Positions 4,572 to 23,991 of a stretch of 24,000 nt of DNA are shown here, in pieces (positions within the stretch are counted from its first letter, which is position 1; each line of letters starts with the position of its first letter). Source of the stretch: Desulfurococcus sp. GTDB taxonomy: Archaea > Thermoproteota > Thermoprotei_A > Sulfolobales > Desulfurococcaceae. The notes under the pieces were generated by a model. The model had not been told where the DNA came from and did no database searches. It was given only the letters and a program-made list of their open reading frames with translations. Location: positions 55,138 to 79,137 of the forward strand of contig NZ_JAVZPN010000001.1 in the NCBI RefSeq assembly GCF_038881575.1, written 5' to 3'. The position numbers and the translations under genes are program-made.

Positions 4572-4636
4572 ACCTACGCACCATAGGTAACTATATTATT
4601 ATATAGATAAAAATAAGTATAGTGTGGTGTAGAGGC

Positions 4637-6414: not shown

Positions 6415-6477
6415 ATTAGATTTAATGTGTTCAGGAGGTTAAAGACCTGTGTTTAATCAATCCTGTTTAAATTTAGA

Positions 6478-8622: not shown

Positions 8623-8677
8623 TTGGCTCAGGTAATTAAATCCCGTGATGGATATGTATGTAGCCGGGGTGTTTTAA

Positions 8678-10645
8678 TTGTCTAGGAAGATCTTCCACAC
8701 ACTTCTCTCAGTAAGGGAAGCAGTTGAGGAAGTTGTGAAACGGGTGAAGCCTGCCCCAAAAGGGGTAGAGGAGGTTGGTTTAAGGGAAGCCCTTTGGAGG
8801 ATACTAGCAGAAGACATATATGCACTGGTCGACCACCCGCCCTTCGATAGGAGCGAGGTAGATGGTTACGCTGTGAGAAGCATTGATATAGAGTGGAGTG
8901 ATGAATTATCCCCGGTTGAACTCAAGGTAGCTGGCTCAGTAGGGGTTGGTGAGGGACCCAGTATTGCATGCAGGCCTGGTGAAGCAGTTGAAGTTGCCAC
9001 TGGAGCAATGGTGCCAATGGACTGCGACTCCATCGTGATGGAGGAGTACACTGAGAGAACCGGTGAAGTAGTCAAGGTTTTCAGGAGTACGAGTCCCGGT
9101 GAAAACATCTCGACCGCTGGTAGTGATGTATCGGCTGGAGACCTAGTCCTCCTCAAGGGTACCAGGCTCAGTCACGAGCATATAGCTTTACTAGCTGGCC
9201 TAGGGGTTGGAAGGATCCCCGTGTACGTGAGGCCCAGGGCTGCAGTATACTCGACCGGCGACGAGGTCGTGGAGCCAGGTGAGCCGCTGAGTGCCGGCAA
9301 GGTCTATGATGTAAACGGCTACCTTGTGACAAGCTATCTCAGGGAGCTCGGGGTTGATGCTGTATTCAAGGGCCGCCTCCCTGATGACTATGGGAGGCTG
9401 AAGAACGCTATAGAAAGCGATCTCGGAAGCTATGATATGGTTTTCACTAGTGGAGGTACAAGCGCTGGGATCAGGGATCTCGTATACAGGGTGTTCGAGG
9501 AGCTGGGTGAGGTGGTGGTGCATGGTTTGAAGACTAAGCCGGGTAAGCCAACGGTTATAGCTGTATCCAGCGGTAAGCTCCTCATAGGTCTTCCAGGCTT
9601 CCCCTTATCATGCTACATGATACTGAGGGGTGTTGTGAAGCCCATTGTCTCGCTTATGACTGGTCTCAGGGAGGATGAGAGGGTGGTGGAGGCCACTCTA
9701 CCGGTTAGGGTGAGGAAGCAGGTTGGTAAGGCCTGGTTGATACCCGTATCACTGGTTGAAGGGGTCAACGGGTATTCAGCGTACCCCGTATCCTTCAGTA
9801 GTGGTAGCATAGCCTCGCTTATCTATAGTGATGGATACGTTGAGCTCCCGGAGGACCTGGATACCGCTGAAGCCGGGAGCAGGGTGAAGGTCTACTTGTT
9901 CAGGGATCCTCCACCGCCCGGGAGACTTAATATCATCGGGAGCAATGACCCCTTACTCATGGAGTTGTTGAAGGCTACTGGGCTAGCTTACTCCAGCAGG
10001 GTGTTGAACACGGGTAGCCTCGCCGGCTGGCATGCCGTAGCAAGGGGTGAGGCGGATATAGCTCCAACCCACCTACTAGACGAGGAGACACTGGTCTACA
10101 ATACACCATTCCTCAAGAAGTTCAACCTGGAGGGTAAAGCAGTGTTGATCAGGGGCTTCGACAGGCTTATAGGGATAGTAACGGCTCCAGGCAACCCTAA
10201 GAAGATAGAGGGTATAGAGGACTTCCTCAGAAGCGACGTCAGGATAGTTAACAGGGTAAGGGGCTCCGGGATCAGGACTTACCTAGACCACCACCTTAAG
10301 AAGATACTTAGTGAGAAGGGGATACCCTTCGCAAGGGTGAGGGAGCTTGTGAAAGGCTATACATACGAGGTAAAGACGCATACAGCTGTAGCACTAGCGG
10401 TGAAACAGGGGAGGGCGGATGCAGGAATAGCGGTAGGCTACGTAGCGGAGCTATTCAACCTAGGCTTCAAGCCGTTGACATGGGAGGAGTACGACCTACT
10501 AGTACCCGTGGAGAAACAGGGGAAGCCAGGTGTAAGGAGGCTTATAGATATACTGGTTAACAGAGAAGCAATCGAGCCACTACTCCAAGGCAAATACGGT
10601 AAATACTACAGGATACCGGTGAACACGGGGAAGCCGAAAACATAG
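8678..10645 (+). CDS. moeA: Molybdopterin molybdenumtransferase MoeA fused to a C-terminal periplasmic-binding-protein-like domain
   Basis: MoeA N-domain (DHPPFDRSEVDGYAV), MoCF domain (VYSTGDE...TSGGTSAG), then a ~240 aa PBP-like extension (NIIGSNDPLL...). TTG start. Confidence 0.8.
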   Translation: MSRKIFHTLLSVREAVEEVVKRVKPAPKGVEEVGLREALWRILAEDIYALVDHPPFDRSEVDGYAVRSIDIEWSDELSPVELKVAGSVGVGEGPSIACRPGEAVEVATGAMVPMDCDSIVMEEYTERTGEVVKVFRSTSPGENISTAGSDVSAGDLVLLKGTRLSHEHIALLAGLGVGRIPVYVRPRAAVYSTGDEVVEPGEPLSAGKVYDVNGYLVTSYLRELGVDAVFKGRLPDDYGRLKNAIESDLGSYDMVFTSGGTSAGIRDLVYRVFEELGEVVVHGLKTKPGKPTVIAVSSGKLLIGLPGFPLSCYMILRGVVKPIVSLMTGLREDERVVEATLPVRVRKQVGKAWLIPVSLVEGVNGYSAYPVSFSSGSIASLIYSDGYVELPEDLDTAEAGSRVKVYLFRDPPPPGRLNIIGSNDPLLMELLKATGLAYSSRVLNTGSLAGWHAVARGEADIAPTHLLDEETLVYNTPFLKKFNLEGKAVLIRGFDRLIGIVTAPGNPKKIEGIEDFLRSDVRIVNRVRGSGIRTYLDHHLKKILSEKGIPFARVRELVKGYTYEVKTHTAVALAVKQGRADAGIAVGYVAELFNLGFKPLTWEEYDLLVPVEKQGKPGVRRLIDILVNREAIEPLLQGKYGKYYRIPVNTGKPKT

Positions 10646-10965: not shown

Positions 10966-12321
10966 CTAGATCTGACTTGCTATGTCCAGTATTTTCATTA
11001 CTGCGTGTACCGCTGTTTCCGCGAATACCCTGATCATTGCTTCTTTACCAGTGTCTCCTGTATCGTAGACTATATCTGCTTTACTGTCTATTGTGAATGC
11101 CTCCCTTATTATCCATGGTATTGACGCGCCTTCTTTCTGCTTTACTTCTGATGGTTCACGTGTTCTATCTATATAGACTATCCTGTATCCTTTTCTAGCT
11201 GCTTTCTCAATGAACCCCCTGCTGTAGGCTATGTTGACTACTGCCCTTACCTCTGGATTATGCTTCACTGCCTCTAGGAGGGCTCTTGCCAGGTGGCTTG
11301 ACGCCCCCGGCTTCACGGGGCCCACCGGCTTCACTGTGTCCATGTATCGTACTATCCTACCTGCCACCGCTGCAACGTCTTCTATTCCCCTAGCGTACAG
11401 GGGGTTTATGATCCTAGCTATATTCATCCCTACCTCGGGGACTAGATGCTTGAATACATCCCTGTTCTCGAGAACCAGTTCAACGGCTTCCTCTACATCC
11501 ATTATTGCCCAGTATTTTTCAGCAGGTATAGCGAGCCACGCAGCAGGGTTCACTGGGCAATGCCCCTTCCCCACCCTGTACCCGTAGCTTATAGCCGTGG
11601 ATATGAATTCCTTAGCTAACTTCACGGCCTCAGGGATCTCGAGTCCCTTGGCCAGCCCGGCGGTTATAGCCGCTGAGAAGCTGCATCCCCCTCCATGGCT
11701 ACATGGCTGGCTTATCCTTGGAGCCCTGTACTCCCTGTACCCGCCACGCCAGTAGAGGACATCGATTGACTCATCGCCCTCCATGTGTCCACCTTTCACC
11801 ACGACCGCCTCGACACCTGTTTCAACAGCTATTACTCTAGCAGCCCTCCTAGCATCCTCGAGGTTCCTTATCTCCATGCCTGCCAACACTTCTGCCTCAG
11901 GCTTATTCGGGGTAGCTACTTTAGCCAGGGGGAGCAGCTTCTCAACGAGCGCTTTAACAGCGTCCTCCCTGAGGAGCCTGGCCCCGGTTTTAGCTATCAT
12001 GACTGGGTCTACTACGAGCGGGAACCCGTATTTCTCGACTGCCCTAGCTACAGCCTCTATGATCCCGGTATTACTCAGCATACCTGTCTTGGCGGCATCA
12101 ACCCCTATGTCCTCAGCCACGGCTTCTATCTGCTTATAAACGATCTCGGGCGGAATATCATGGATGGCTGTGACAGCCACCGTGTTCTGAGCTGTTACAC
12201 TAGTGACTGCTACAGCACCGTGCACGCCTAGAGCCGTAAACGTCTTGAGATCCGCCTCTATCCCTGCTCCACCGCCTGAATCGCTTCCAGCTATGGTTAA
12301 CGCGACCTGGATGGGTTTCAA
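10966..12321 (-). CDS. thiDN: Bifunctional HMP/HMP-P kinase ThiD fused to ThiN-type thiamine-phosphate synthase (ThiDN)
   Basis: 451 aa. The N-terminal ThiD ribokinase-like fold starts with a [10 protein letters not shown] motif. The C-terminal ~180 aa extension is typical of the archaeal ThiN domain. Confidence 0.85.
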
Positions 12322-12375: not shown

Positions 12376-12408
12376 GCTTAACCCAGGATAGAAACAAGTG
12401 GTGAAACC

Positions 12409-13191
12409 ATGAGCCTTGAATCCCATATAACCCGAGTCATATGGGAGGAAGCCTCAAGGGACTGGGTGGAACTAAGCAGCTGCGACGTAGTAGTAGTAGG
12501 GGCAGGACCCTCAGGCCTCACAGCCGCTAAATATCTGGCTGAGAAAGGATTGAAGACCCTCGTACTAGAGAGGAGGCTTAGCTTCGGCGGGGGAATAGGC
12601 GGCGGAGGAATGCTCCTCCACAAGGCTGTAGTCGATGAAAGAGGATTAGGGATCCTCATGGACTTCAATATAAGGTATAAGCCGTCAAGCATCAAGGGGC
12701 TATACGTGGTGGACACAGCAGAGTTAACAGCTAAGCTAGCCGCCAGAGCCCTCGATGCTGGAGCGAAGATCATACCAGGAATATCAGTAGAAGATGTCAT
12801 TGTGAGATACAACCCGTTCAGGGTGCAGGGAGTAGTAGTAGAGTGGAGCGCCGTCCAGTTCTCAGGACTGCATGTAGACCCATTATTCATAGAGTCAAAA
12901 GCAGTCATAGATGCAACAGGCCACGACGCCGAGGTGTTGAGGATACTCGAGAAGAAGAATCCTGAGTCCAAGGTCAAGATACCCGGAGAGAAATCAGCAT
13001 ACAGCGAGAAAGCAGATGTAGACGTCGTAGAGTACACGGGGAGAGTGATCCCAGGCCTCTATGCCACTGGAATGGCGGTCGCAGCAGTACACGGCTTAAA
13101 CAGGATGGGGCCAATATTCACAGGCATGCTACTCTCAGGGAGAAAAGTAGCCGAGGCAGTAATAAGAGACCTGGAATCAGCACCGAAGTAG
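12409..13191 (+). CDS. thi4: Thiamine thiazole synthase Thi4 (non-Cys type)
   Basis: Dinucleotide fold [57 protein letters not shown]. The only Cys is residue 25. Confidence 0.85.
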
Positions 13192-13965
13192 CTTATTCAG
13201 GGGATTCGGGCTTCATAGGGTTTGATATTGTTTGATATCAAGTCCTCTGCCCTTGGGTTCGGGTCTGGTGAATACTTGTGATCACTTGTAAGTACTTCTA
13301 AATACTTTCTTCATCCCCTCATCCCTTGTTCCCCCGCTCTGTCTGGCTTCACTCTTCATTGCGGGGGCGCTTTGGGGTGACCCGGGCACCCCCGCATACG
13401 CCTGCATAGCTTTTAACCAGATGTTTGTTGCTCCAATAGAGTCTCTATCCATTTTTAGTCTGCATTTTATGCATATAGCTAATCTATTGATGTACACTAG
13501 TCTGCTTCTGCATCTTGGGCACAGTGACGAGGTGTTTCTCGGGTCTACAACTACTATTGGGATGTTGTACTCCAATGCCTTGCTCACTATGGAGTGAATG
13601 AGCCTTCTGTACGCAAACCTCGCCAGCTTCCACCTAATGCTCTTCTCTCTGCTGTTCGCACTTTCTAGAAGCTTATCGAGGCTCTCTAGCACTATGGCGT
13701 GTCTGAGTTTGAAGGCTTTTAGAGTCAGCTTCTTGGCTGCCTTCCAGCACCAGTCAACAACAATATTCCTAGACCTCCTGTGCAATGACCTAACCCTATT
13801 CAGGATTCTGCTATTGTACCTCCACATCCTCGGATACCTCCTCTGAAGCTCCTCAGCTCTAGCCCTCTTGCTCAAAGCCTCTACAAACCTCGTCCTATAC
13901 CTCTTGACTTCAAATCCATCGAATGTTGTAAGTTGCTTGAGGTTTACAACTGAAAGCCTCGCCAT
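13192..13965 (-). mobile_element. 5'-truncated IS200/IS605-family (TnpB-only, IS1341-like) element remnant
   Basis: Holds the tnpB 3' two-thirds plus ~90 bp of right end. The right end finishes with the reverse complement AATCCCCTGA (13197-13206), directly abutting the thi4 TAG (13189-13191). Confidence 0.7.
13282..13965 (-). pseudogene. tnpB: Truncated tnpB (RuvC-II/III and zinc finger retained; N-terminal WED/REC region missing)
   Basis: IVLESLDKL (RuvC-II Glu), CPRC...CIKC zinc finger, MDRDSIGATNI (RuvC-III Asp). It begins at LSVVNLKQ, where an intact copy has LAVDINEK, so the RuvC-I Asp appears replaced by Val. Confidence 0.7.
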
Positions 13966-13983
13966 TTATGGCGGGGATGAAGA

Positions 13984-13990
13984 TTTATAA
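13984..13990 (+). promoter_or_regulatory. TATA box candidate for the small RHH-like ORF
   Basis: TTTATAA (TTTATAAGC), centred ~40 nt upstream of TTG 14027. Confidence 0.3.
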
Positions 13991-14026
13991 GCCTCTGTAT
14001 TCTGTTTCTGGTTATGGTGCTCTAGC

Positions 14027-14173
14027 TTGAGCGAGCGAGAGAAGGCTACTGAGGATGTGAAGGTTAGGCCTAGCACTAAGAGGAAGCTAGATGCTTTGAA
14101 GTCCCATCCTAGGGAGACGTATGACCAGGTTATAACAAGGCTTATAGAGTTCTATGAGAAGCATAAGCAGTAG
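14027..14173 (+). CDS. Small ribbon-helix-helix/antitoxin-like protein (38-48 aa; below the ORF-track cutoff)
   Basis: Manual translation from TTG 14027 (or GTG 14057): (L)SEREKATEDVKVRPSTKRKLDALKSHPRETYDQVITRLIEFYEKHKQ*. The pattern xVxxxTxxxLxxLKxxxxESxxxVIxxL resembles small archaeal CopG/VapB-like antitoxins. Confidence 0.35.
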   Translation: MSEREKATEDVKVRPSTKRKLDALKSHPRETYDQVITRLIEFYEKHKQ

Positions 14174-14186
14174 AGGTTTTTCTTCA

Positions 14187-14537
14187 ATGGGCGATGAGGG
14201 TTTCCTAACCCTGGCTATTGGGGTGAGGGTTAGCCCCGAGCCCGAGGCTGTAGAGCTTCTAAAGAGGTATAGAGATGCTCTGAACTATGCTATTAAAGTG
14301 GTTATAGAGAACAAAGCAACATCGTTGAGTAAGGCCCATAAACTTTTGTACAACACCTTGAAGAATAGGTTCGGATTACCATCGAGAATAGCTCAAGACT
14401 GCTATAGAGAGGCTATTGTGATTGTAAAGTCTTGGCTTAAGAACCCGAGGCGTGGGAGAATACCGAGGGTTAAAACGCTTAGGATGTGGCTAGCCCATGG
14501 ATATGGCTACAGGATTAGAAATGGGGTTCAGCTCTGA
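14187..14537 (+). pseudogene. tnpB: tnpB N-terminal segment (WED/REC region)
   Basis: LTLAIGVRVSPEPEAVELLKRYRDALNYAI...DCYREAIVIVKSWLKN...PRVKTLRMWL is the typical TnpB/OrfB N-terminal pattern. It ends at TGA 14535-14537, before any RuvC motif. Confidence 0.65.
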
Positions 14538-14781
14538 TGTAGGTTTATGTTGGTTGATGTCATCGCCTCATCTCTTTTCCCCTGCATTGGTCTTGGGTTT
14601 GCATCACCCTTAGGGGCGTTCAGGGTGACCCCGGGCACCCCACATCTTGCTGTGTCTCGGGGAGAGCCGCCATCTATATTATCAAACGGCTCTCGATCCC
14701 TCATCGAGGTACCTCCGCGTATATTACTGTATCAAGGGTGTTTATAAGCGTTTCCATCATTATCAACCGATACGAACAGAT
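14538..14781 (-). mobile_element. Nested relic of a second tnpB 3' end (boundaries approximate)
   Basis: 14561-14645 is a same-strand repeat of 13311-13395: CATCGCCTCATCTCTT vs CATCCCCTCATCCCTT, and GGTGACCCCGGGCACCC vs GGTGACCCGGGCACCC. The minus-strand translation ...CGVPGVTLNAPKGDANPRPMQGKRDEAM parallels ...AGVPGSPQSAPAMKSEARQSGGTRDEGM. Confidence 0.6.
14741..14747 (+). promoter_or_regulatory. TATA box candidate inside the nested relic, upstream of the tnpB C-terminal segment
   Basis: TTTATAA (TTTATAAGC), centred ~38 nt upstream of ATG 14782. Confidence 0.3.
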
Positions 14782-15657
14782 ATGAAAAACGAAACAGTTG
14801 CACTAGGCTTTGCTGAGATCATTGGAGGCTATAGACTTAGGATAATTGGCTGGGACAAGAGATATGATCAGTACGAGAGCAGAGAGGCTAGGTTGGTGTA
14901 TAGAAACGGTAAGATGTTTCTTATGATAGCGAAGAGGGTTCCAAAGCCGGCTAAGTATGCTCCAAGAGGTGTCTTGGCGGTAGATATTAACGAGAAGCAT
15001 ATTGTTCTAGGGAACACTGTTTTTGAGAAGAGGGTTGAGACGCCAATCAAGAGGGCTCTACACTTCAAGATACTTGCTGAGAACCTCATGAAGAAGTATA
15101 GCCATGGGAAATACAGGGCATGGACTAGGAAAAAGGTTCTCGAGAGGATTAGAAGCTTCCACAGAAGAGCTAGAAACATTCTCTTGGACTGGGCAAGAAA
15201 AACAGGCTTGGCGATTGTTAGAGAAGCTATGAAAAACCTCTACGCAGTCGCTAGAGAGGACCTCAACGGCTTGATTGAATCTGTTAGAGAGCTTCCGAAG
15301 AGCCATAGAAAGAAACTTATTCTACTCTCTTACAACAAGCTAGTGTATTGGATAGACTGGCAAGCAGAGAAGCATGGCGTGCCAGTGATAACAGTTGATC
15401 CCAGAGGCACATCATCAACATGTCCAAGATGCGGAGCGAAATTCAGAGAAAATGGCTACAGAAGGCTAAAATGCATGAAATGTGGATTCGAAGGAGATAG
15501 AGATACCATTGCTATCCTAAACATTGAGAGAAGAGCTTTAGCCAAGCTCCAGATGGGAGGAGCCCTGGCCCCCTCGACTGCCCCGCAAATGAAAGATGTA
15601 GCCCCGAATAGATGCGGGGAACCAATGAACCCCCTAAAGGGAACCCTCGCCCTTTAG
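14782..15657 (+). pseudogene. tnpB: tnpB C-terminal segment (complete RuvC triad and zinc finger; lacks the first ~120 aa)
   Basis: LAVDINEK (RuvC-I Asp), AVAREDLNG (RuvC-II Glu), CPRCG...CMKCG zinc finger, EGDRDTIAILNI (RuvC-III Asp). The ORF-track start 14647 reads through the nested relic. ATG 14782 is the first start within TnpB-like sequence. Confidence 0.7.
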
Positions 15658-15708
15658 GGCGGGGAGGAGGTCAGCTGCTACCACCAGCCGCGGTGGAATC
15701 CCTGATTC
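15644..15708 (+). repeat. Reference copy of the IS right-end sequence (overlaps the tnpB stop; expected omega-RNA scaffold 3' part)
   Basis: CCCTCGCCCTTTAGGGCGGGGAGGAGGTCAGCTGCTACCACCAGCCGCGGTGGAATCCCTGATTC. It contains GCCC/GGGC and CCACC/GGTGG hairpin arms. The 16-mer core at 15651-15666 recurs at 2754-2769(-), 17007-17022(+) and 21443-21458(-). Confidence 0.65.
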
Positions 15709-16346
15709 TACCTGGTAAAATACTCGTCAAGGCCAAGGCTAAGGGGCGAATACTATACTATAAAGACGCAGGCTTCGCAAGGAAACAGGTTGAAGCAGGT
15801 GAGACAGTAGAGATCTAGCTCATGTTTTCTTCGACTTAAACCCGCAATCCCTGTTCTATCTAGTAATTCAAGTAGTTCATTGAGGTATGGCATATCGTTT
15901 CCTCCAATCATATCGCTCCACACCTTTTTGTTTCATTAAGGCATAAAGAGATACAGCTCGACACAGAAAGCTATAATCTAATGTTTCTGCCCAGTTCACC
16001 AGGGGAATTTATATCGCCAGGTGAATACAGGTGCTGAAAATTTTTCGGTGTTTAGAGGAGGGGTTTATATGGGTTGGTGGGCTGGGTGGAGTCCCTAGGT
16101 GAAACCATATAAAATGATTGGAGCGAACACCCAGGGAGAAACAACAATATCCTTATATATCATTCTAATTCTACTAGTCCCCTGGGAAGGCTGATGTGTA
16201 CGTGAAAAACCCTCTAGGGGGAGGCAAGCCTGAAGGCGAGTTTATGATGATGCCCGGTGTCTCAGTGCTCCTTAGCGATGCTAACCCGGCTAGTGTTAAA
16301 GCATATATAAATGCTGTCCTCAAGTGTGGTGAATGCTAGCCATAAT

Positions 16347-16982: not shown

Positions 16983-17031
16983 CCCTAGTAGGGGCAAAGC
17001 CCTCATCCTTTAGTGCGGGGAGCCGTCGACC
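16983..17031 (+). repeat. Orphan copy of the IS right-end-like sequence
   Basis: 17007-17022 is CCTTTAGTGCGGGGAG (1 mismatch to the reference core). The flank AAAGCCCTCATCC matches the 2.7-kb copy. It supplies the last ~10 codons and the stop of the 17003-17341 gene. Confidence 0.6.
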
Positions 17032-17341
17032 TTGATCCCCTATGGCTTAACCAATTCCACCAGTAAATGAATATTAAAGAATAGATGTAAGCCGTCAACA
17101 TGTTCTCTAGGGTCATTGTTTTCCCAGAGTATACTATACTAGCTACTGTCATAGACATCATTAACAAGCCGGTTGCAAGCGCGCCTAGGGAACCGTTTGT
17201 AAGCCACGCGTGTAGCAGGAGTATGCCTGGGATCAGGGTTACCGTGTTCCTCAGCTTCAAGGGGCCAATCAGCTTTTCATCAAGTACTGATGCCTCCTCA
17301 AGGTATATGAAGTCATGGAGCCTCGCCTCCATCCTACTCAC
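17003..17341 (-). CDS. Small membrane protein, PrgI/VirB3-like candidate
   Basis: 112 aa with two or three hydrophobic helices. DEKLIGPLKLRNTV and YSGKTMTLENMLTAYIYS resemble the G-L-(S/T)-x-R-Q and G-(M/L)-x-x-E-x-x-(I/L) blocks of PrgI-family proteins (from memory). GTG start overlaps the VirB4-like stop (GTGA). Confidence 0.45.
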   Translation of the reverse strand: MSRMEARLHDFIYLEEASVLDEKLIGPLKLRNTVTLIPGILLLHAWLTNGSLGALATGLLMMSMTVASIVYSGKTMTLENMLTAYIYSLIFIYWWNWLSHRGSRSTAPRTKG

Positions 17342-19140
17342 CTACTCGTAGAGAATAACCCGAGTTCCTCACTAGTTGCAAGCACCTGTATAAATAGTCT
17401 CTTACCACCTGTCTTCAACAAGCCGTAGCCTGGTGGAGCGTTTACAATGGTGTTTACCTCTGCATCGCTTAAGCCATATATCTCCCTTAATATATTCCTC
17501 CCCTCCTGCTCCTGCCTTAACACTAGTGCAGTGGCTGATTGCTCCAGGATACTCCTGCCCTGCGGGGTTCTAGCGAGATCCTCTGCCCTCTGGGTTACAT
17601 AGATGAATGCAACTCCATGCTTCCTCCCTCTTCTCGCAATGTTCTCCAGTAGCCCCATTAGAGATGGGGTTTCAAGGAATAACCATGCTTCATCAATGAA
17701 GAAAACCGATCTTCCTGTTTTAGAGAGTAGCTTATTGTACGCGTATACACTGATAAGCGAGCTTATAAGCGCTTTCAAGCGCCTAGATCTAATATTCTTC
17801 AACCCGAATATAGTCGACCCCCTTAGCTCTGGGAGCCTCCCCCTGTACACATGGATATCGGGTGGTGCCAATGCTCCCTTGAGGAAGCCCTTTAACTCCT
17901 TGTCGCCGATGACTTCTATAAAGCTCTCTAAGTCAACCACTCTATCACTCTTAACGAATAACTCCCTCCTTAGAACACCCTGTAGCCTCGGGGGTATAGC
18001 GTAGAGCTCTGAAAGCACGTCGGCTACTTGGCCTAGTTCTAGGAATCCTTCTTTAAGTAGTCTAACGGGATCTAAACCTAGCTCCTCGCCCTCAGTGATC
18101 TCCACTGATGTTGCATCAAATACCCTTGAAGCCCTCGTATACTCTGACTCTGGGTCGACACCAAAGTAAACTACACCTCTGTCAAGCTCCCTAAGCCTCT
18201 TCAAGTATATTTTAATAGTCATTGATTTACCGGCTCCTGAGACCCCTAGCACGACGAAGTTGAGGTTAGGTTTGCTCCAGAGATCCAGGATTACGGGGCA
18301 TCCAGAGCCTGAGACCCCGAGGAATACGCCTCGTTCATCCCTCACCTCCTCGTCCACTAGGAAGAAGAATGGTTTAATGGAGTAGGTATCTGTATATTTT
18401 TTCTCAAGCCCAGCGAGTAGTCCACTAGTCTTAAAGTAGTATAGATCCAGCTGTATGTAGGGGGCCTCAGCCTCCAGGCCATGCGTCTTCAATAAGTCTC
18501 TTAACTCTCCAGCCTTATCCTCTAGTGACTTGTAATCCCGTGCTATCATAGTGAGGAGTAAGTGGAACTCATAGAGGTCTGCGCCCCTGATTATCCTCGA
18601 AGCTAGTTCCCCTGCGAGCTCTACACTGGCTTCCTCCCTAGCCCCCAGTACACCTAGCCTTCTCTTCCTCACTGAGTCAGCTATATGGATGGCCCTTGAA
18701 CGCGGGATCCGTTTAAAGACTAATGTAACTTCATCACTAGAGGAGAGGAGCATGTATGTGAAGCCCTCCGGTAGCTTCAATGGATACCTGTAGACAACGT
18801 ATACCCTGGCAATCCTACCGTCCTCGAGTAAGAGTGTCCTAGGATTCGTCAACCCAACTGCCCTCGGCCTCTTAGGTTCCTCTCTCGAGGCATTGAAGAA
18901 TGAGAGGTTTACTCCGGGTGGAGCTAATGCATAGTACTCGTATTGTGCTGTATCTATAGAGTAGGCTCCATACCTGTACTCCTCAGTGATCCTCCTGGCT
19001 AGTAGCACTCCCTCCTTTATCACGGATATCATTGAACTCCATTCCTCGAGAACCAGGTCTCTCTCCGCATCGGTGAGGTTGAAGAATGACACGCCTGTAA
19101 ACCTCCACCATACATGGTTATACATTACCGGGCACCACAC
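17338..19140 (-). CDS. VirB4/TrbE/CedB-family type IV secretion ATPase
   Basis: 600 aa. A long N-terminal VirB4-like region, Walker A VLGVSGAGKS, Walker B VFFIDEAW, downstream YVTQR. ATG at 19125 is an alternative to GTG 19140. Confidence 0.7.
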   Translation of the reverse strand: MWCPVMYNHVWWRFTGVSFFNLTDAERDLVLEEWSSMISVIKEGVLLARRITEEYRYGAYSIDTAQYEYYALAPPGVNLSFFNASREEPKRPRAVGLTNPRTLLLEDGRIARVYVVYRYPLKLPEGFTYMLLSSSDEVTLVFKRIPRSRAIHIADSVRKRRLGVLGAREEASVELAGELASRIIRGADLYEFHLLLTMIARDYKSLEDKAGELRDLLKTHGLEAEAPYIQLDLYYFKTSGLLAGLEKKYTDTYSIKPFFFLVDEEVRDERGVFLGVSGSGCPVILDLWSKPNLNFVVLGVSGAGKSMTIKIYLKRLRELDRGVVYFGVDPESEYTRASRVFDATSVEITEGEELGLDPVRLLKEGFLELGQVADVLSELYAIPPRLQGVLRRELFVKSDRVVDLESFIEVIGDKELKGFLKGALAPPDIHVYRGRLPELRGSTIFGLKNIRSRRLKALISSLISVYAYNKLLSKTGRSVFFIDEAWLFLETPSLMGLLENIARRGRKHGVAFIYVTQRAEDLARTPQGRSILEQSATALVLRQEQEGRNILREIYGLSDAEVNTIVNAPPGYGLLKTGGKRLFIQVLATSEELGLFSTSR

Positions 19141-19190
19141 CTATACTGTAGAAGGGGGTCAAATAATCAGGGCCCTACACGGTATGCTCC

Positions 19191-19198
19191 TTATTTAA
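19191..19198 (+). promoter_or_regulatory. TATA-like box for the pilin/ATPase operon (leaderless geometry)
   Basis: TTATTTAA, centred ~24 nt upstream of ATG 19218. It lies within the ~80-90 bp divergent spacer shared with the VirB4-like operon. Confidence 0.3.
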
Positions 19199-19217
19199 CT
19201 CGTCTACGACACGTAGC

Positions 19218-19493
19218 ATGGGTGGGATAATGGATCTCGTATATCAATTACTCTACTCCCTACCAATAACAGTGACCCCTGAGCCACCGCCTGGCATAGG
19301 TGAAGCCGTCTCAAGGGTGCTCAGCTGGCTCTACTGGCTCTCATGGGTTGCAGTGCTCGGGGCAGGCTTCTACGGTGTCTTAAAGATCGTGACTGGTGAT
19401 AGTGATGAAGGGAGAAGGCTTATCATCAGCGCTATCGTGGGAGGAGTACTACTAGCCTTCCTCTGGCTGATACTATCCGTTCTTATCTCATAG
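19218..19493 (+). CDS. VirB2/TrbC-like conjugative pilin candidate (CedA1/TedC-like)
   Basis: 91 aa. N-terminal leader-like segment, hydrophobic helix 1 (VLSWLYWLSWVAVLGAGFYGVLKIV), short charged loop (TGDSDEGRR), hydrophobic helix 2 (LIISAIVGGVLLAFLWLILSVLIS). It sits 13 nt upstream of an ATPase gene. Confidence 0.5.
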   Translation: MGGIMDLVYQLLYSLPITVTPEPPPGIGEAVSRVLSWLYWLSWVAVLGAGFYGVLKIVTGDSDEGRRLIISAIVGGVLLAFLWLILSVLIS

Positions 19494-19506: not shown

Positions 19507-21435
19507 GTGGTACCAGTGCAACTATACCGTGTATTCCCCAGGATCGGGGAGAAGCCGGATCCCAGCGTCCTGGGCTATAGGTTCACTTACTGCCTGTTGA
19601 ATACCGGGGGAAGCCTCAAGGTATTCATCGCCACTGAGCTACCTAGGGATTCTCTCAGTAAATTCATGGATGTCAGGGAGTATAGTGTACAGGAGTTGAC
19701 CGAGGAAACCGGCCTAGAACTATATGTTTCAGAAGCGAGATTGAAGAATAGAAGGGATTTCTGGCTGAGGGACACGATTATACTGGATCCACCGAGCCTA
19801 GCGTCTTCTCTTGGAAGGCCTGGGTTGATGTGTATAGGGTTCTCCAGGGACACCGTGTTAGATGAGATATTCTTCTCGAGGGCTCGTGGGTTATTGAAGG
19901 CTAGAGGGACCCGTGGAGGCAGGGTGGAGGCTGAGGCCATCCTTGATAGGGCTAGGAGAGGGCTATGGACCCTGAGGATAATGGGGGCTGCAAGGGATAG
20001 GATTACCCTTGGGTTGATCGAGGAGAAGTATTCCACGGCATCTTACACAGGCTTTAAATGGGTTAGGCATGCGGCCAGAACCCCTGGTGAACTATGGGGG
20101 TACCTGAAGCCGTTGGAGACGGGTTTCTGGACCCGGGTTTTCCCCGGGGATATACCAGTTGTAACCAGTAGTAGGGTGTATGATATGATGGTTCTCCCTG
20201 ATCCAGCTATACATACCGTTGAATTCGCAAGGAGAAGCCCTCTGCCAGAGGCTGTACCAGTTAGAAGCGGGGCTAATTGCTTCAGGATAGGCTCTACCCT
20301 CAACGGGAAGGAGGTAAGGCTCTGCATGAGTGACCTCGAGAGGCATGTCTACGTTATTGGCCAAACCGGTAGTGGTAAGACTAGTTTCCTTAAGCTCCTG
20401 GTTCACAGGGTGCATGAAACCGGTGAGGCCTCTATCATTGTGATAGATCCCCATGGAGATATGGCTTTAGAGCTAGGTAATGAGATACCCGGTTCATTAC
20501 TCTATGACCCGGTCGATAACCCGTTCAGTATCAATCCTCTTGACCTGCCTAGACACAGGGATAGGGATTACGCTGTATCAGTCGCTATAGACATACTCCT
20601 TGATATCTTCCACGAGGTTTTAAAACTAGTGAACACAGCTGTGAACGTCAGGTACTTGCTTAGAGTCGTCTTGAGAGCCCTGTACTCCAGGAGTGATTCA
20701 CCCACTATGGCGGACCTATATAATACTATACTAGGACTGTATGATGGCAGGGTCACACTGGGAGATCTAAGCGACTACGAGTGGAGGCGCCAAATAGGGG
20801 TGCTCAGGAGTATGCAGAGGCAGTCCCTTATCTCGGCATTATCGAGGCTGGAGCCGTATGCCAGGGATAGATTCCTCAGGGAGTTAACAAGCAGGACCAG
20901 CGTGGACTTCGAGGAAATGCTGTCCCCTGGATCACTAACATTATTCTCCATACCCAAGGCGGTTGTAGGAGGAGACTTAGCCAGATTAATTGCATCAACA
21001 ATAGTTATCAAGACATGGTACGAGGCGCTGGCTAGGCCGAGGCTGGGAAAGCCTAGGACACCCGTGTTCCTCATCATAGATGAGTTCCAATTCGTCTCTG
21101 ATCTCCCATTAATAGATATTATTTTCTCGGAGGCTAGGAAGTATGGGTTACACCTCGTTGTAGCACATCAACACACTGGTCAAATACCGGGCCAGCTAAT
21201 CCAATCAGTGCTTACTAATACAGGTGTGAAACTAGTGTTCCAAGTGGCTGGTGAAGACGCTGAGAAACTAAGCACTATCGACGCCGACTTCGCCAGACTA
21301 CTCCGAAGAACCCTAACATCCCTGTCAACAGGTATGGCCGTATTAAAGATAGCTGGAAGACCTGGAGAGCAGTCTCCACCACCGTTAATTGTTAAACTAG
21401 ATTACCCCGGATCCACCGGGTTGAAGCCGGGTTAG
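19507..21435 (+). CDS. FtsK/HerA-superfamily P-loop ATPase, VirD4/TraG-like coupling-protein candidate
   Basis: 642 aa. Walker A VIGQTGSGKTS followed by VIDPHGD, Walker B VFLIIDEFQ, ARKYGLHLVVAHQHTGQI. The first ~280 aa have no recognisable motifs and no TM helices. GTG start. Confidence 0.65.
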   Translation: MVPVQLYRVFPRIGEKPDPSVLGYRFTYCLLNTGGSLKVFIATELPRDSLSKFMDVREYSVQELTEETGLELYVSEARLKNRRDFWLRDTIILDPPSLASSLGRPGLMCIGFSRDTVLDEIFFSRARGLLKARGTRGGRVEAEAILDRARRGLWTLRIMGAARDRITLGLIEEKYSTASYTGFKWVRHAARTPGELWGYLKPLETGFWTRVFPGDIPVVTSSRVYDMMVLPDPAIHTVEFARRSPLPEAVPVRSGANCFRIGSTLNGKEVRLCMSDLERHVYVIGQTGSGKTSFLKLLVHRVHETGEASIIVIDPHGDMALELGNEIPGSLLYDPVDNPFSINPLDLPRHRDRDYAVSVAIDILLDIFHEVLKLVNTAVNVRYLLRVVLRALYSRSDSPTMADLYNTILGLYDGRVTLGDLSDYEWRRQIGVLRSMQRQSLISALSRLEPYARDRFLRELTSRTSVDFEEMLSPGSLTLFSIPKAVVGGDLARLIASTIVIKTWYEALARPRLGKPRTPVFLIIDEFQFVSDLPLIDIIFSEARKYGLHLVVAHQHTGQIPGQLIQSVLTNTGVKLVFQVAGEDAEKLSTIDADFARLLRRTLTSLSTGMAVLKIAGRPGEQSPPPLIVKLDYPGSTGLKPG

Positions 21436-21717: not shown

Positions 21718-22281
21718 TTAAGCTAGTGCCGGAGGTGCCTGCACTACCTGCTCCTGGGCCGGCTGTGGCGGCTTCAAGCTGAAGAAGGCTACTGCGGCTA
21801 TTATCCACGCTATGAAAACCAGTATTAATCCCACTATTATGATCGTCAAAGCCGCCCCGATCAATAATATAAGTCCTGCTGTCTCCAGGAGCTTCTCACC
21901 TGATTTAGTTGCTAGGAGATCAAGGGATTTCTTGTAGAATAATGCCTCTAATACTAGGATGACAAAGTATACAACGATGAAAAGTAGTACTGTACCAATT
22001 ACTCCTTCTGCCATATGCCGTGGTATACTGGGAGCGAAGGTTATTGCGATCCCTACTATAGATATTGCCATAAATATTATTGTCACTAAACCTATTACAC
22101 CGATTATCACGGCATATAAGGCATACCTGAATATACCCTCCTCCCTATATGTGTCTGAGAGACCCTTCAACCCTATTAGTAACAGTATTAATCCCACTAG
22201 TGCCAGCAACGGGATAAAGACGCCTATTGCCATGAGGATTGATCCTATTCCAGCCAGTATCCTACTCGAGTCAAACTCCAT
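21718..22281 (-). CDS. Polytopic membrane protein, DUF996-like
   Basis: 187 aa, ~5-6 TM helices. ILAGIGSILMAIG...LILLLIGLKGLSDTYREEGIF resembles the archaeal DUF996 signature (from memory). Pro/Gln/Ala-rich tail. Confidence 0.55.
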   Translation of the reverse strand: MEFDSSRILAGIGSILMAIGVFIPLLALVGLILLLIGLKGLSDTYREEGIFRYALYAVIIGVIGLVTIIFMAISIVGIAITFAPSIPRHMAEGVIGTVLLFIVVYFVILVLEALFYKKSLDLLATKSGEKLLETAGLILLIGAALTIIIVGLILVFIAWIIAAVAFFSLKPPQPAQEQVVQAPPALA

Positions 22282-22398: not shown

Positions 22399-23991
22399 AT
22401 GGGCATTATGTCTAGTTTACTAGGATACCTCGACTGGATTCTATGGGCTTTAAGCATTAGTGTTATAATAGTCTCAATCATTAAGCATGTCCTGGGACAC
22501 AGGGACTCCGGGGCTTGGTTTCTCAGGGGTGTAGCCGGGCTACTCCTAGCTGGCTTCTCCAGCATCTTAGTTAACTCCCTCTATAATGCATCGCAGGACG
22601 TATTAGGGCATGCCTCCTACGGCTGGATCCTCCACGCGTCTTCATTGGGGCTCGTACTAATTGGTGGATTATATATTGCCATGGGCAGGATCGGTGAAGG
22701 CATCTCCAGTATTCTAGGGGGCATCCTCCTCATTGGGGTTGGGTTGATGGGTATTTACCTAGGCAGCAGTCTCCATGGAGGCTATGGCGGGCCGCTCTAT
22801 GTCTACCTCTACACTGATAAGCAGGGCTATTATGTTGGGGAAGCAGTCGGCCTCTCGGTCTCCATCTCCCCGGGGATCAACGGTGCCTCCTATACTGTTT
22901 CATGGGGTGATGGGGTTGTTGAGGAGTTCGATGGCGGCTCCTCCCTGAGGCTCAGCCACGTCTATAATTCAAGCGGGGCGTATGTGATACGGGTTAATGT
23001 GAGCAGTAGTGGTTTAACAGGCTTCAACAGTATCGCTGTAAGTGTCTCGGATAAACCGTGGACGCCTCCATGGCCCTTCGACATAATAGTCTCCCCTGTA
23101 ACCGGGTTCTTCAGCATGTTCTGGCAAGTTGTCTCAACACCCTTCAACCTTCAGTTGCTCACTACATCCCCCAGGCTTGAGGAGGGGTCGGCTGAATGGG
23201 GTCTCTACGAGCTAACGTTCTCTATCTCGATGAGCGGACTAGGCCTCTACCTGGGGTTCAGGCTACTCCAGGCTGTCTTCGAGGGTGAGTCGAGAGGCTT
23301 CATTGATGTTGTTAGAGAAGCCTTGATAGCCGTGCTCCTATCTCTTACAGCCCCCTATCTCCATAATGCCTCAGTCGACATGCTTAACGCTTTCTCCCTC
23401 AAGGTGGTTGAATGTGTTGATCCAATGCCCTCTATAGCCTCGATACTGGCACTTATATCGACAGGGGTGGCGCTCGGCTTCTTCATACCTGTAGCAGCAA
23501 ATTTAGCCGTTGTATTAACCATTATGCTTGCCTCAGCCTCCGCGCTAGTCGTGATCAGGCACTGGCTCATACTCACCATAACAGTTTCATCACCAATACT
23601 GGCAATCGCATACCTCCATCCAGCTCTACGTGGGGCAATGAACAGGGTAATAGGACTCTGGGGTAGCCTGGTTCTCGCGGGCCCCTTAACAGCAGTGTTC
23701 ATGAGGACCTGGAGCACTCAGGTCGGTGTAGCAGGGCAGGCTTTAACCAGCGTATTCATATACATGATACTACCCAATATAATAGGATTACTGGGTGGAG
23801 TGGGCCCGGTGATTACGAGGAGTGCCAGCATACTATTATACACCGCGCTCGGAGCGATGAGAACAATGGAGGAGAGGAGGCAGACTAGAACACAACGGTT
23901 GCAAGCTGGGGCAAACACGCCTCAAAGAATAAGATTGTTAAATCCGTATCAATCCGGGATACCATCATGGAGAACCAGGGATATCGAATAA
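22399..23991 (+). CDS. Large polytopic membrane protein with an inserted PKD-like Ig domain (VirB6/TrbL/CedA-like candidate)
   Basis: 530 aa. ~4 N-terminal TM helices, a PKD signature (SYTVSWGDG...LSHVYNSSGAYVIRVNV), then ~6-7 further TM helices and a basic cytoplasmic tail. Confidence 0.6.
   Translation: MGIMSSLLGYLDWILWALSISVIIVSIIKHVLGHRDSGAWFLRGVAGLLLAGFSSILVNSLYNASQDVLGHASYGWILHASSLGLVLIGGLYIAMGRIGEGISSILGGILLIGVGLMGIYLGSSLHGGYGGPLYVYLYTDKQGYYVGEAVGLSVSISPGINGASYTVSWGDGVVEEFDGGSSLRLSHVYNSSGAYVIRVNVSSSGLTGFNSIAVSVSDKPWTPPWPFDIIVSPVTGFFSMFWQVVSTPFNLQLLTTSPRLEEGSAEWGLYELTFSISMSGLGLYLGFRLLQAVFEGESRGFIDVVREALIAVLLSLTAPYLHNASVDMLNAFSLKVVECVDPMPSIASILALISTGVALGFFIPVAANLAVVLTIMLASASALVVIRHWLILTITVSSPILAIAYLHPALRGAMNRVIGLWGSLVLAGPLTAVFMRTWSTQVGVAGQALTSVFIYMILPNIIGLLGGVGPVITRSASILLYTALGAMRTMEERRQTRTQRLQAGANTPQRIRLLNPYQSGIPSWRTRDIE

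Follow-up and report, generated by a model that had tools for sequence, protein, structure and literature searches.

To our knowledge, only two archaeal mating pilins have been characterized, CedA1 and TedC, and no sequence similarity is recognizable between them. CedA1 is the pilin of the Ced DNA-import system (Aeropyrum pernix APE_0220a, PDB 8DFU), and TedC is the pilin of the Ted system of the Thermoproteales (Pyrobaculum calidifontis Pcal_0765, PDB 8DFT); the two structures are 6.5 Å RMSD apart (PMC9905601). Desulfurococcus and the Fervidicoccales possess VirB4 instead of CedB/CedD and are grouped in that respect with the Thermoproteales (PMC11868833). No naming of the pilin and pore of this VirB4 system was found in the literature (cf. 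PMC11868833). Archaeal conjugation modules also are known from Sulfolobus pNOB8-type plasmids and from thaumarchaeal ICEs (PMC6563490), and no naming of a pilin of the PPPG-motif family described below was found in the literature on those elements.

The DNA analyzed here, termed the window, is a stretch of 24,000 nucleotides from Desulfurococcus sp. (contig NZ_JAVZPN010000001.1, positions 55,138 to 79,137). The initial annotation of this stretch proposed a conjugative pilin of 91 aa at positions 19218-19493. The proposal is evaluated below against the fold of the predicted protein, its family, its genomic neighborhood and the described systems.

Results

The candidate pilin gene

The ORF at 19218-19493 on the + strand is unannotated, its translation reproduces the 91 aa of the initial annotation exactly, and no other sizeable ORF occupies this interval. 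The length did not stand. An alignment revealed that ATG 19230 is retained in the D. mucosus ortholog in which ATG 19218 is missing, and both close homologs of the candidate are 87 aa. The true gene therefore most likely comprises 19230-19493 and encodes 87 aa. The segment 19218-19229 is probably a 5′ UTR in which GGTG may act as a Shine-Dalgarno-like element. The two features are:

19230..19493, + strand: candidate VirB2-like pilin gene, 87 aa plus stop (translation, ortholog lengths, conserved start, dN/dS, AF2, PF18895)
19218..19229, + strand: four additional codons (MGGI) of the 91-aa version (ATG 19218 unconserved in D. mucosus)

The window and D. mucosus proteins share 71% identity, with dN/dS of 0.21 and pS of 0.54. 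The ORF is a real gene that is conserved and under purifying selection.

Fold and N-terminus of the predicted protein

In the AF2 model of the window protein (pLDDT 86), residues 23-54 and 58-86 form the two helices of a hairpin. The layout described originally, in which two hydrophobic helices are separated by a charged loop and the second helix lies at the C-terminus, is upheld both by this model and by hydropathy. Thus, the pilin-superfamily trait of a small hydrophobic helix-loop-helix with a short polar/basic loop is present. The loop has the consensus G-D-x-x-x-G-K/R-K/R in the family alignment. The elements of the protein are as follows:

19263..19301, + strand: conserved motif PITVTPEPPPGIG, residues 12-24 (family alignment, pN/pS, N-terminal comparison)
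19296..19391, + strand: helix alpha-1, residues 23-54, aromatic-rich and moderately hydrophobic (AF2 secondary structure, hydropathy)
19392..19418, + strand: charged loop TGDSDEGRR, residues 55-63 (AF2, family alignment)
19401..19487, + strand: helix alpha-2, residues 58-86, strongly hydrophobic and reaching the C-terminus (hydropathy, AF2)

The two-helix hairpin is a generic fold, and hairpins carry little Foldseek signal: a Foldseek search against the PDB produced nothing at E≤0.001, and the 32 matches listed were to generic helices with no pilin among them. The family profile matched none of the solved pilins in the PDB at E≤10 in a set that includes VirB2 8EXH. Similarly, a PDB sequence search with the window protein matched no pilin, and phmmer with family member P0024 recovered no pilin chain from PDB sequences. 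Alignment by hhalign of the family with A. tumefaciens VirB2, for which the query was checked against 8EXH/8CUE, was not significant. In the proposed comparison with CedA1, TedC and VirB2, no similarity to these pilins was shown by sequence or by Foldseek; the fold predicted by AF2 is a helical hairpin. The candidate pilin most likely represents a third sequence family beside CedA1 and TedC.

The PITVTPEPPPGIG segment is the most constrained of the gene, with pN of 0.03 versus pS of 0.51. Comparison of N-termini placed this motif straight after the signal-peptide cleavage region in the homologs. Signal-peptide calls were made with a purpose-made heuristic. Most homologs tested possess a Sec-type leader consisting of a basic n-region, a hydrophobic h-region and an A-x-A/AQ site before ITVTPxPPPG. 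By the same heuristic, a canonical signal peptide is absent from the N-termini of the window and D. mucosus proteins; in the former, 11 weakly hydrophobic residues that include no basic n-region precede PITVTPEPPPG. Thus, the leader-like N-terminus that was ascribed to the window protein is a property of most of its homologs, and the sequence in the window protein itself is noncanonical. Leaders comparable to those of the homologs are found in VirB2, TraA and TedC (PMC9905601). As CedA1 is unprocessed (PMC9905601), a cleaved leader is not universal among solved conjugative pilins.

An archaeal protein family related to T4SS pilins

A three-sequence profile built from the window protein and two close homologs retrieved 29 cluster representatives at E≤1e-3 among 1.84 billion proteins. 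The family is archaeal with at least 29 clusters, occurs also in Archaeoglobus and Nitrososphaerota, and in most members combines a signal peptide, the ITVTPxPPPG motif and two hydrophobic helices. A search of metagenome contigs with the pilin returned a near-identical strain only.

The best Pfam match of the window protein is T4SS_pilin PF18895 (E 9e-4, 19.6-19.7 bits, below the gathering threshold of 26.6). The match extends over model positions 9-71 of 71 (63 positions) and includes both helices. The values lie barely within those used in a T4SS survey to recognize VirB2-like pilins, namely i-E<0.001 and >50% model coverage (PMC12102498). PF18895 also is the commonest Pfam match in the family (11/22 members, best E 4e-5, all sub-threshold), with ≤4 members for any other Pfam family. 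TrbC/VirB2 PF04956 was matched by 2/22 members, and two archaeal members scored individually gave ≤16 bits with this model compared to a gathering threshold of 27.9. Protein P0017, which was retrieved by the three-sequence profile with an E of 7e-7, is a bona fide PF18895 protein (68 bits, E 6e-19) that links the window protein transitively to PF18895.

Neighboring genes in the window

The candidate was described originally as the first gene of an operon whose second gene specifies a secretion-type ATPase, and as facing a VirB4-like gene across a short shared region. Both statements agree with the arrangement observed:

19126..19229, no strand: divergent intergenic region of 104 bp, with two TTATTT(A/G)AC TATA-like boxes
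19191-19199, + strand: TATA-like box for the pilin operon (conserved between window and D. mucosus)
19160-19168, − strand: TATA-like box for the VirB4 operon (conserved between window and D. mucosus)
19507..21435, + strand: VirD4/TraG/HerA-type ATPase, 642 aa with no TM segment, second gene of the pilin operon (Pfam)
17338..19125, − strand: VirB4-like ATPase, 595 aa from the conserved ATG 19125 (Pfam, NCBIfam)
17003..17341, − strand: orf112, a 112-aa two-TM protein whose gene overlaps the VirB4 stop (synteny, weak PrgI match)
21718..22281, − strand: DUF996 four-TM membrane protein, a conserved neighbor in D. mucosus (Pfam, synteny)

The TTATTTAAC boxes are candidate divergent promoters; a scan for bacterial sigma-70 promoters and terminators was set aside as the host is archaeal. 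The VirD4-type gene begins 13 nt downstream of the pilin candidate. Its product matches DUF87, TrwB_AAD_bind, T4SS-DNA_transf and TraG-D_C in Pfam, and its best NCBIfam match is CedD, far under the cut-off. The VirB4-like gene matches AAA_10, P-loop_TraG and DUF87 in Pfam, and VirB4-like CD1110, TraC and VirB4_CagE in NCBIfam. Homologs of the latter gene form 73 clusters in Desulfurococcaceae, Ignisphaera, Zestosphaera and Fervidicoccus, and a search for related loci with the VirB4 protein gave one archaeal locus only. Compared with the CedB/CedD equivalog cut-offs, the neighboring ATPases scored 29.5 bits versus 700 and 56.6 versus 600. In D. mucosus, Ignisphaera and metagenome contig L020, the orf112 gene likewise directly adjoins VirB4, and its product, which matches PrgI weakly (E 0.05), is tentatively a VirB3/PrgI-like candidate.

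The T4SS-like module in the window lies amid housekeeping genes, with neither an integrase nor a ParB or TFIIB gene visible there, and thus may represent a domesticated element or a remnant. Rfam and tRNA scans of the window found nothing and thus provide no evidence of an integration site.

A pore candidate with a pilin-like hairpin

A polytopic membrane protein is encoded further downstream:

22399..23991, + strand: 530-aa polytopic membrane protein, VirB6/CedA/TedA-like pore candidate (synteny, architecture, weak PKD matches)
22405..22602, + strand: pilin-family homology region, the N-terminal hairpin (residues 3-68) of the 530-aa protein (hmmsearch, hhalign)

From the N-terminus, the protein comprises the pilin-like hairpin, a second hairpin, a PKD-like domain and ~6 TM helices. 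Six further distinct loci (L001, L017-L021, L023) retain it together with the system. No direct similarity to VirB6 was shown, and the AF2 single-sequence model (pLDDT 45) was too poor for a structure search; the protein is a VirB6-like candidate on the basis of architecture and synteny. The pilin profile matched the N-terminal hairpin by hmmsearch in 7/7 members of the 530-aa family tested, and hhalign aligned the pilin family with the 530-aa family over 63 columns with 95.6% probability and an E of 1.2e-8. Judged by these profile alignments, the candidate pilin is homologous to the N-terminal hairpin of its cognate pore candidate, and a trait shared by the Ced, Ted and VirB systems is present. 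The same pilin/pore paralogy is reported for CedA1/CedA and VirB2/VirB6 (PMC9905601).

Homology to an integral part of a 530-aa membrane protein, together with the lack of a signal peptide in the window copy, also would suit a T4SS channel subunit (VirB3-like, or a 'VirB6 N-terminal module' that has become detached) that remains in the membrane and at no stage assembles into an extracellular filament. Gram-positive T4SS classes have no major pilin genes (PMC12102498), and monoderm T4SSs function without a VirB2 pilus. Nevertheless, we consider a channel subunit unlikely, as orf112 beside VirB4 is the better VirB3/PrgI-like candidate, most family members have cleavable-looking signal peptides, and the pilin/pore paralog pair does yield pili in Ced and Ted (PMC9905601). 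Surface display or a filament also is the better fit for a homolog at locus L005, where a complete pilin domain (E 2e-16) forms the C-terminal end of a 1792-aa adhesin-like protein (CARDB, Laminin_G_3). The gene for this fusion adjoins a free pilin gene, and its product would look like a tip or minor subunit that co-polymerizes with the major pilin.

Linkage in other genomes

Homologs beside VirB4-like genes in other genomes, as anticipated in the initial annotation, were found in D. mucosus, Ignisphaera and metagenome contig L020 in differing gene orders. With the window, these make four rearranged loci in which the pilin gene is linked with VirB4-like, VirD4-like and VirB6-like genes. The window and D. 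mucosus share one arrangement, in which the VirB4-like gene and the pilin-VirD4 operon point away from each other and the VirB6-like gene is close by. In L020, it is the VirD4-like gene that diverges from the pilin gene, and VirB4 and VirB6-like genes belong to the same cluster. The order in Ignisphaera (L023) is pilin, a 56-aa ORF, hp78 and the VirB6-like gene, with VirB4 and VirD4 ~6-10 kb away. The L020 and L023 clusters adjoin TFIIB-like, ParB, resolvase and methyltransferase genes.

Hydrophobic proteins with two helices abound and weakly match many membrane families, and among members of this family weak matches to CbtA, Phage_holin_2 and DUF4064 also were noted. Moreover, three loci with distant homologs (L007, L009, L011) contain no VirB4 or VirB6 on the contig stretch in NCBIfam, Pfam and Walker-A/TM checks. 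These observations would accord with an unrelated small membrane protein, such as a holin-like protein or a transporter accessory, that lies beside T4SS genes by chance. Such an explanation is highly improbable given the recurrence of the same VirB4, VirD4 and VirB6-like set in four loci with differing gene orders, the specific homology to the VirB6-like N-terminus, and the predominance of PF18895 among the Pfam matches of the family.

The hp78 proteins (77-81 aa, two TM helices) are encoded directly upstream of the VirB6-like gene in L017, L018, L019 and L023. That hp78 replaces the PPPG-motif pilin in relatives of the window system was ruled out, as both are encoded in one operon in Ignisphaera L023; apparent absences in other loci partly reflected truncation of those loci. 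The position of hp78 next to the pore candidate and its co-occurrence with the PPPG-motif pilin in L023 would be compatible with a minor or accessory role for the latter, the main subunit being an hp78 protein or the product of a gene outside the window, and other small two-TM proteins in related clusters (hp78, orf112 family) could in principle be the filament subunit. Sequence downstream of the VirB6-like gene is unseen because the window stops there. A minor pilin is nonetheless improbable: neither the window ORFs nor 20 kb of D. mucosus sequence (L001) yielded an hp78 homolog, and hp78 itself has no signal peptide and no pilin-family Pfam match, possesses a soluble-looking N-terminal segment and is not matched by the pilin profile.

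Discussion

The gene at 19230-19493 probably encodes the major pilin, the analog of VirB2, of a chromosomal T4SS-like DNA-transfer apparatus. The VirB2-like reading gains support from the fold, the linkage with T4SS genes, PF18895 as the best family and pilin/pore paralogy. The computational checks that ran were favorable or uninformative rather than contrary.

The topology of the pilin, its non-processing, polymerization and lipid content, and the DNA substrate and direction of transfer, are inferred in the following scheme. The 87-aa protein would insert in the membrane as a hairpin with the short acidic N-tail and C-terminus outside and the K/R loop in the cytoplasm. As in A. pernix CedA1, no signal peptide would be cleaved from the window protein, although processing appears to occur in most members of its own family. 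The VirB4-like ATPase and the VirB6-like 530-aa protein may pull the subunit out of the membrane, following which it would polymerize to give a hollow pilus containing lipid, or a short conduit at the least. Single-stranded DNA supplied by the co-transcribed VirD4-type ATPase would then cross the pilus between cells.

A more speculative suggestion, which we put forward as doubtful, is that the protein is the pilin of a third archaeal chromosomal DNA-exchange system, distinct from Ced and Ted, in Desulfurococcus, Ignisphaera and Fervidicoccales. Such a system would be characterized by full-length VirB4, a VirD4/TraG ATPase that is devoid of TM segments and co-transcribed with the pilin, a VirB6-like pore with an extracellular PKD domain and a leaderless pilin. 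It could both export and import chromosomal DNA because a coupling-protein-type ATPase is present. If true, the pilin family, which extends to Archaeoglobus and Nitrososphaerota, would mark conjugation-type pili across much of Archaea.

Naming the 87-aa 'hypothetical protein' and its family of at least 29 clusters as candidate pilins would fill the pilin/pore gap of the VirB4 system. The combination of ITVTPxPPPG and two helices provides a sequence handle for putative conjugation-type pili in archaeal genomes and MAGs, and D. mucosus is a cultivable organism in which the pilus can be sought by cryo-EM. With the candidate, pilin/pore paralogy would be known from three independent cases; the concept itself dates from 2023 and is unchanged by it.

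Among the described systems, the pNOB8-type plasmids and ICEs likewise pair a VirB4/TrbE-like with a VirD4/TraG-like ATPase and encode VirB6-like and VirB3-like membrane proteins, and their TFIIB-like, ParB, resolvase and methyltransferase neighbors recur in L020 and L023. In contrast, the window module resides among housekeeping genes and is not accompanied by visible integrase, ParB or TFIIB genes. The bacterial VirB2-like pilins of PF18895/PF04956, including those of Patescibacteria (PMC12102498), share the helix-loop-helix and the G-D/x...G-K/R loop with the candidate, whereas the scores are sub-threshold and the family here is archaeal with a distinctive ITVTPxPPPG N-terminal motif.

CedA1, too, is a two-helix pilin encoded on a crenarchaeal chromosome. 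Leader cleavage is lacking in CedA1, as is likely for the window protein, and the homology of CedA1 to the CedA N-terminus parallels that of the 87-aa to the 530-aa protein. However, the PDB search disclosed no sequence similarity to CedA1, no NCBIfam Ced model matches the pilin, and the neighboring ATPases are far under the CedB and CedD cut-offs, with VirB4 present instead in Desulfurococcus (PMC11868833). Compared with TedC, sequence similarity is undetectable with the family profile against PDB chains, the window protein is without a canonical leader, the operon partner is a VirD4/TraG-type ATPase that is not among the named Ted components, and the lineage is Desulfurococcales whereas TedC homologs are reported in Thermoproteales only. 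Nevertheless, TedC is likewise a small hairpin of two helices whose gene accompanies those of a VirB4-like ATPase and a VirB6-like polytopic membrane protein, and in TedC, as in most members of the family, a probably disordered stretch separates a signal peptidase I-type leader from helix 1. Furthermore, the Ignisphaera pilin gene is located upstream of the pore gene, as tedC is upstream of tedA, and the system described here resembles Ted in having a full-length VirB4 and not a CedB/CedD pair.

Results

The open reading frame at 19218-19493 on the plus strand translates exactly as described in the initial annotation and is located between two large ATPase genes in the ORF map. Two close homologs were recovered when 5.8 billion proteins were searched by word index, one with 98% identity and the other, a Desulfurococcus mucosus 'hypothetical protein', with 71% identity, each of which comprises 87 aa and begins at the residue matching the second ATG of the window sequence (19230). 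The start was assigned to this ATG as alignment with D. mucosus DNA revealed that it is kept whereas that at 19218 is not. The codon alignment yielded pS and pN values of 0.54 and 0.17, respectively, with dN/dS of 0.21 and the tightest constraint in the segment PITVTPEPPPGIGEAVSR. Judged by the conserved start and this ratio, the frame is a genuine gene under constraint that encodes 87 aa. Thus, the gene proposed initially is upheld, but its length of 91 aa is reduced by four residues. The database entries of the homologs read 'hypothetical protein'.

Features surrounding the candidate pilin gene (19230-19493, +) in the window
17003-17341, minus strand: orf112, a 112-aa two-TM protein; overlaps the VirB4 stop codon; weak PrgI/VirB3-type match (E 0.05)
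17338-19125, minus strand: VirB4-like ATPase; Pfam AAA_10 and P-loop_TraG; NCBIfam VirB4-like CD1110, TraC and VirB4_CagE
19160-19168, minus strand: TTATTTGAC mirror-image element positioned for the divergent VirB4-like gene; conserved in D. mucosus
19187-19199, plus strand: CTCCTTATTT(A/G)AC element upstream of the pilin gene (TTATTT(A/G)AC box at 19191-19199); conserved in D. mucosus
19507-21435, plus strand: VirD4/TraG/HerA-type ATPase; DUF87, TrwB_AAD_bind, T4SS-DNA_transf and TraG-D_C
21718-22281, minus strand: DUF996 membrane protein (Pfam)
22399-23991, plus strand: 530-aa polytopic membrane protein (ORF map and hydropathy)

The divergent orientation of the pilin and VirB4-like genes noted initially was confirmed by the ORF map and by Pfam and NCBIfam matches. 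The VirD4-type gene begins 13 nt beyond the pilin stop codon and the two probably are co-transcribed, in agreement with an operon headed by the pilin gene in which a secretion-type ATPase gene is second. This ATPase possesses no TM segment, and its best NCBIfam match is CedD with a score far under the cut-off. The CTCCTTATTT(A/G)AC and TTATTTGAC elements are putative archaeal TATA boxes, which suggests paired promoters for VirB4 and the pilin that could be co-regulated. The pilin and VirB4 genes each have one copy of the TTATTT(A/G)AC box ~35-40 nt 5′ of the ATG.

Housekeeping genes (HMG-CoA reductase, Hel308-type helicase, UPRTase, TtuA and thiamine genes) occupy the leftmost 13 kb of the window and are followed by two TnpB-type (Cas12f1-like_TNB) IS genes within 13282-15818. 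To the right of the latter, a raffinose-synthase-like gene is reduced to its 3′ end (15612-15818). In a 95.5%-identical strain (locus L025) the IS is absent and the raffinose-synthase-like gene is intact at 691 aa. Given the housekeeping flank and the arrangement in this strain, the T4SS-like module is assigned to the chromosome, with a left flank rearranged by IS activity that truncated the raffinose-synthase-like gene. Of the TnpB genes, that on the minus strand is a fragment of 227 aa, and that on the plus strand may be divided between ORFs of 127 and 336 aa. Several long ORFs at 11231-12231 (+) and 12378-13037 (-) are antisense to thiamine biosynthesis genes (451-aa ORF, 10966-12321; 260-aa ORF, 12409-13191) and look like shadow ORFs given their Ser/Thr/Ala/Leu-rich translations.

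An AlphaFold2 model of the pilin based on a 22-sequence family alignment had a mean pLDDT of 86; its two helices, which span residues 23-54 and 58-86, are connected through the tip of the TGDSDEGRR loop. The model reproduces the anticipated helical hairpin with a charged loop and a second helix that runs to the C-terminus. By hydropathy, the C-terminal helix is very hydrophobic, and helix 1 is moderately so and Trp/Tyr-rich. Positive charges (K52, R62, R63) flank the loop; the N-terminal tail bears D2, E18 and E25, and the first basic residue is R29. Application of the positive-inside rule to this pattern predicts a cytoplasmic loop with both termini outside. Membrane-stage VirB2/TraA-type pilins have this same topology.

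The window protein and its two close homologs were combined into a HMMER profile, which identified 29 proteins at E≤1e-3, including six at E≤1e-10, among 1.84 billion cluster representatives. The members, among them proteins from Ignisphaera, Fervidicoccaceae, Archaeoglobus neptunius and a Nitrososphaerota MAG, indicate an archaeal family that spans several phyla. A conserved motif, (I/V)-T/E-(V/I)-x-P-x-P/A-P-P-G, precedes helix 1, which is followed by a G-D-x-x-x-G-K/R-K/R loop and helix 2. A Sec-type signal peptide, made up of a basic n-region, a hydrophobic core and an A-x-A/AQ site, is present at the N-terminus of most tested members. In contrast, as just 11 weakly hydrophobic residues precede the Pro motif in the window and D. 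mucosus proteins, these two lack a canonical leader. The leader-like N-terminus noted initially therefore applies to most of the tested homologs, but not to the window protein.

The sole Pfam match of the window pilin at E≤0.01 was PF18895 'Type IV secretion system pilin' (E 9e-4), which covers model positions 9-71 of 71 with 19.6 bits, below the gathering score of 26.6. The match barely satisfies the inclusion criteria of a T4SS survey (i-E<0.001, >50% model coverage; PMC12102498). PF18895 was matched by 11 of 22 family members (best E 4e-5), TrbC/VirB2 PF04956 by two of 22, and families other than PF18895 by at most four of 22 each. The window-derived profile also retrieved the protein P0017 (E 7e-7), which is a genuine PF18895 protein with three repeats (68 bits) and so links the window pilin transitively to PF18895. 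The family profile found no solved pilin among PDB sequences, a set in which pilins are present, even at E≤10, and similarity to Agrobacterium tumefaciens VirB2 was not significant in hhalign. With Pfam signals under the gathering score and no solved pilin matched, the protein likely belongs to the VirB2/T4SS_pilin superfamily at sub-threshold scores; the searches do not support its placement in the sequence family of TedC or of CedA1.

The pilin profile matches the N-terminal hairpin region in every member of the 530-aa family, and hhalign of the two families gave a probability of 95.6% (E 1.2e-8, 63 columns). These alignments identify the pilin as a paralog of the N-terminus of the 530-aa pore candidate. 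From its N-terminus, the latter carries a hairpin resembling the pilin (residues 3-68), then another hairpin, a PKD-like beta domain (~residues 130-230; weak Pfam matches) predicted to be extracellular, and ~6 TM helices. Its single-sequence structure prediction had a pLDDT of 45. Pfam and PDB profile searches with the family revealed no similarity to VirB6, CedA or TedA. Such an architecture could belong to a VirB6/CedA/TedA-like pore, and the protein, which accompanies the VirB4 system in six further distinct loci, likely is the analog of VirB6, CedA and TedA.

Homologs of the VirB4-like protein formed 73 clusters, mostly of 45-57% identity, from Desulfurococcaceae, Ignisphaera, Zestosphaera, Fervidicoccus and related MAGs. 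Linkage of pilin homologs to VirB4-like genes was found in D. mucosus, a metagenome contig (L020) and Ignisphaera (L023). The D. mucosus order is that of the window: orf112, VirB4, divergently the pilin, VirD4-like, DUF996 and the 530-aa protein. In L020, a pilin homolog with a signal peptide is divergent from the VirD4-like gene, and the cluster also includes VirB4 (47% identical to that of the window), an orf112 homolog, a 530-family protein, and TFIIB-like and ParB genes. In Ignisphaera the pilin homolog is first in an operon with a 56-aa ORF, hp78 (a 77-81-aa two-TM family) and a 530-family protein; VirB4, orf112-like and VirD4-like genes are 6-10 kb distant near resolvase and methyltransferase genes. 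As linkage persists through three differing gene orders, it argues for a functional association. Linkage in Fervidicoccaceae is suggestive only, the longest contigs with the pilin and VirB4 homologs each being 19,617 bp. Distant family members (L005, L007, L009, L011) showed no VirB4 on the stretches available, and often precede a polytopic membrane protein or occupy MGE-like contexts. The orf112 gene is kept beside VirB4 in D. mucosus, Ignisphaera and L020. The D. mucosus record has no gene called at orf112, and instead a 71-aa ORF on the opposite strand (L001 7917-8132) that probably is spurious.

In the hp78 proteins the N-terminal segment is amphipathic and there are two TM helices; their genes are always directly upstream of the VirB6-like gene (L017 10724-10957; L018 17083-17325, minus; L019 5755-5991; L023 17245-17490, minus). 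They showed no significant Pfam match and no match to the pilin profile. Replacement of the pilin by hp78 in relatives was considered and dropped: both occur in one operon in L023, and so are distinct components. A minor alternative is that hp78 is the filament subunit in the relatives that carry it, but no homolog is present among the window ORFs or in the 20 kb of D. mucosus examined. A VirB3-like, CedA2-like or minor subunit role for hp78 could be envisaged.

Locus L005 encodes a 1792-aa adhesin-like protein (4316-9694, +) with CARDB, Laminin_G_3 and filamin-type domains that ends in a complete pilin domain, including the Pro motif (E 2e-16). The domain forms the last ~80 residues (1732-1811 of the stop-to-stop ORF from L005 4253), and adjoining genes encode a free pilin and a ParA/VirC1-like protein. 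The fusion may be a tip adhesin or a minor subunit that co-polymerizes with the major pilin.

Discussion

The alignments and predicted fold show the 87-aa product to be a small and conserved hairpin protein whose family is T4SS_pilin-like. The pilin would enter the membrane without leader cleavage, be dislocated by the VirB4-like ATPase at the VirB6-like platform, and polymerize, lipid probably included, to form a conjugation-type pilus or a short conduit; DNA would move from cell to cell through this structure. Export of DNA is plausible given the coupling-protein-type ATPase, whereas CedD, to which this ATPase has a sub-cut-off match, is an import factor (PMC11868833).

In D. mucosus, a T2SSE/FlaI-type ATPase gene (L001 1881-3140, minus) and unannotated neighbors, none of which occurs in the window, are located ~5-8 kb away from the T4SS-like module. 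Type IV pili (Ups) cooperate with Ced in Sulfolobales, an arrangement that the D. mucosus locus recalls.

Archaeal conjugation-type pili are already established (PMC9905601), and Desulfurococcus and Fervidicoccales are known to have VirB4 instead of CedB/CedD (PMC11868833). As TedC homologs are reported in Thermoproteales only (PMC9905601) and neither study names the pilin of the Desulfurococcus-type system, the proteins described here appear to constitute a third archaeal pilin sequence family, in this case in a leaderless form. Although conceptually unsurprising, the family is of use in annotation and offers a target for cryo-EM. The Aeropyrum pernix CedA1 pilin is unprocessed (PMC9905601), as proposed for the window protein. 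Moreover, the relation between the 87-aa and 530-aa proteins is that of pilin and pore in other systems: CedA1 likewise is related to the N-terminus of CedA (Beltran et al.; PMC9905601), and VirB2 to VirB6, albeit more weakly (66.6% probability, E 0.001; PMC9905601).
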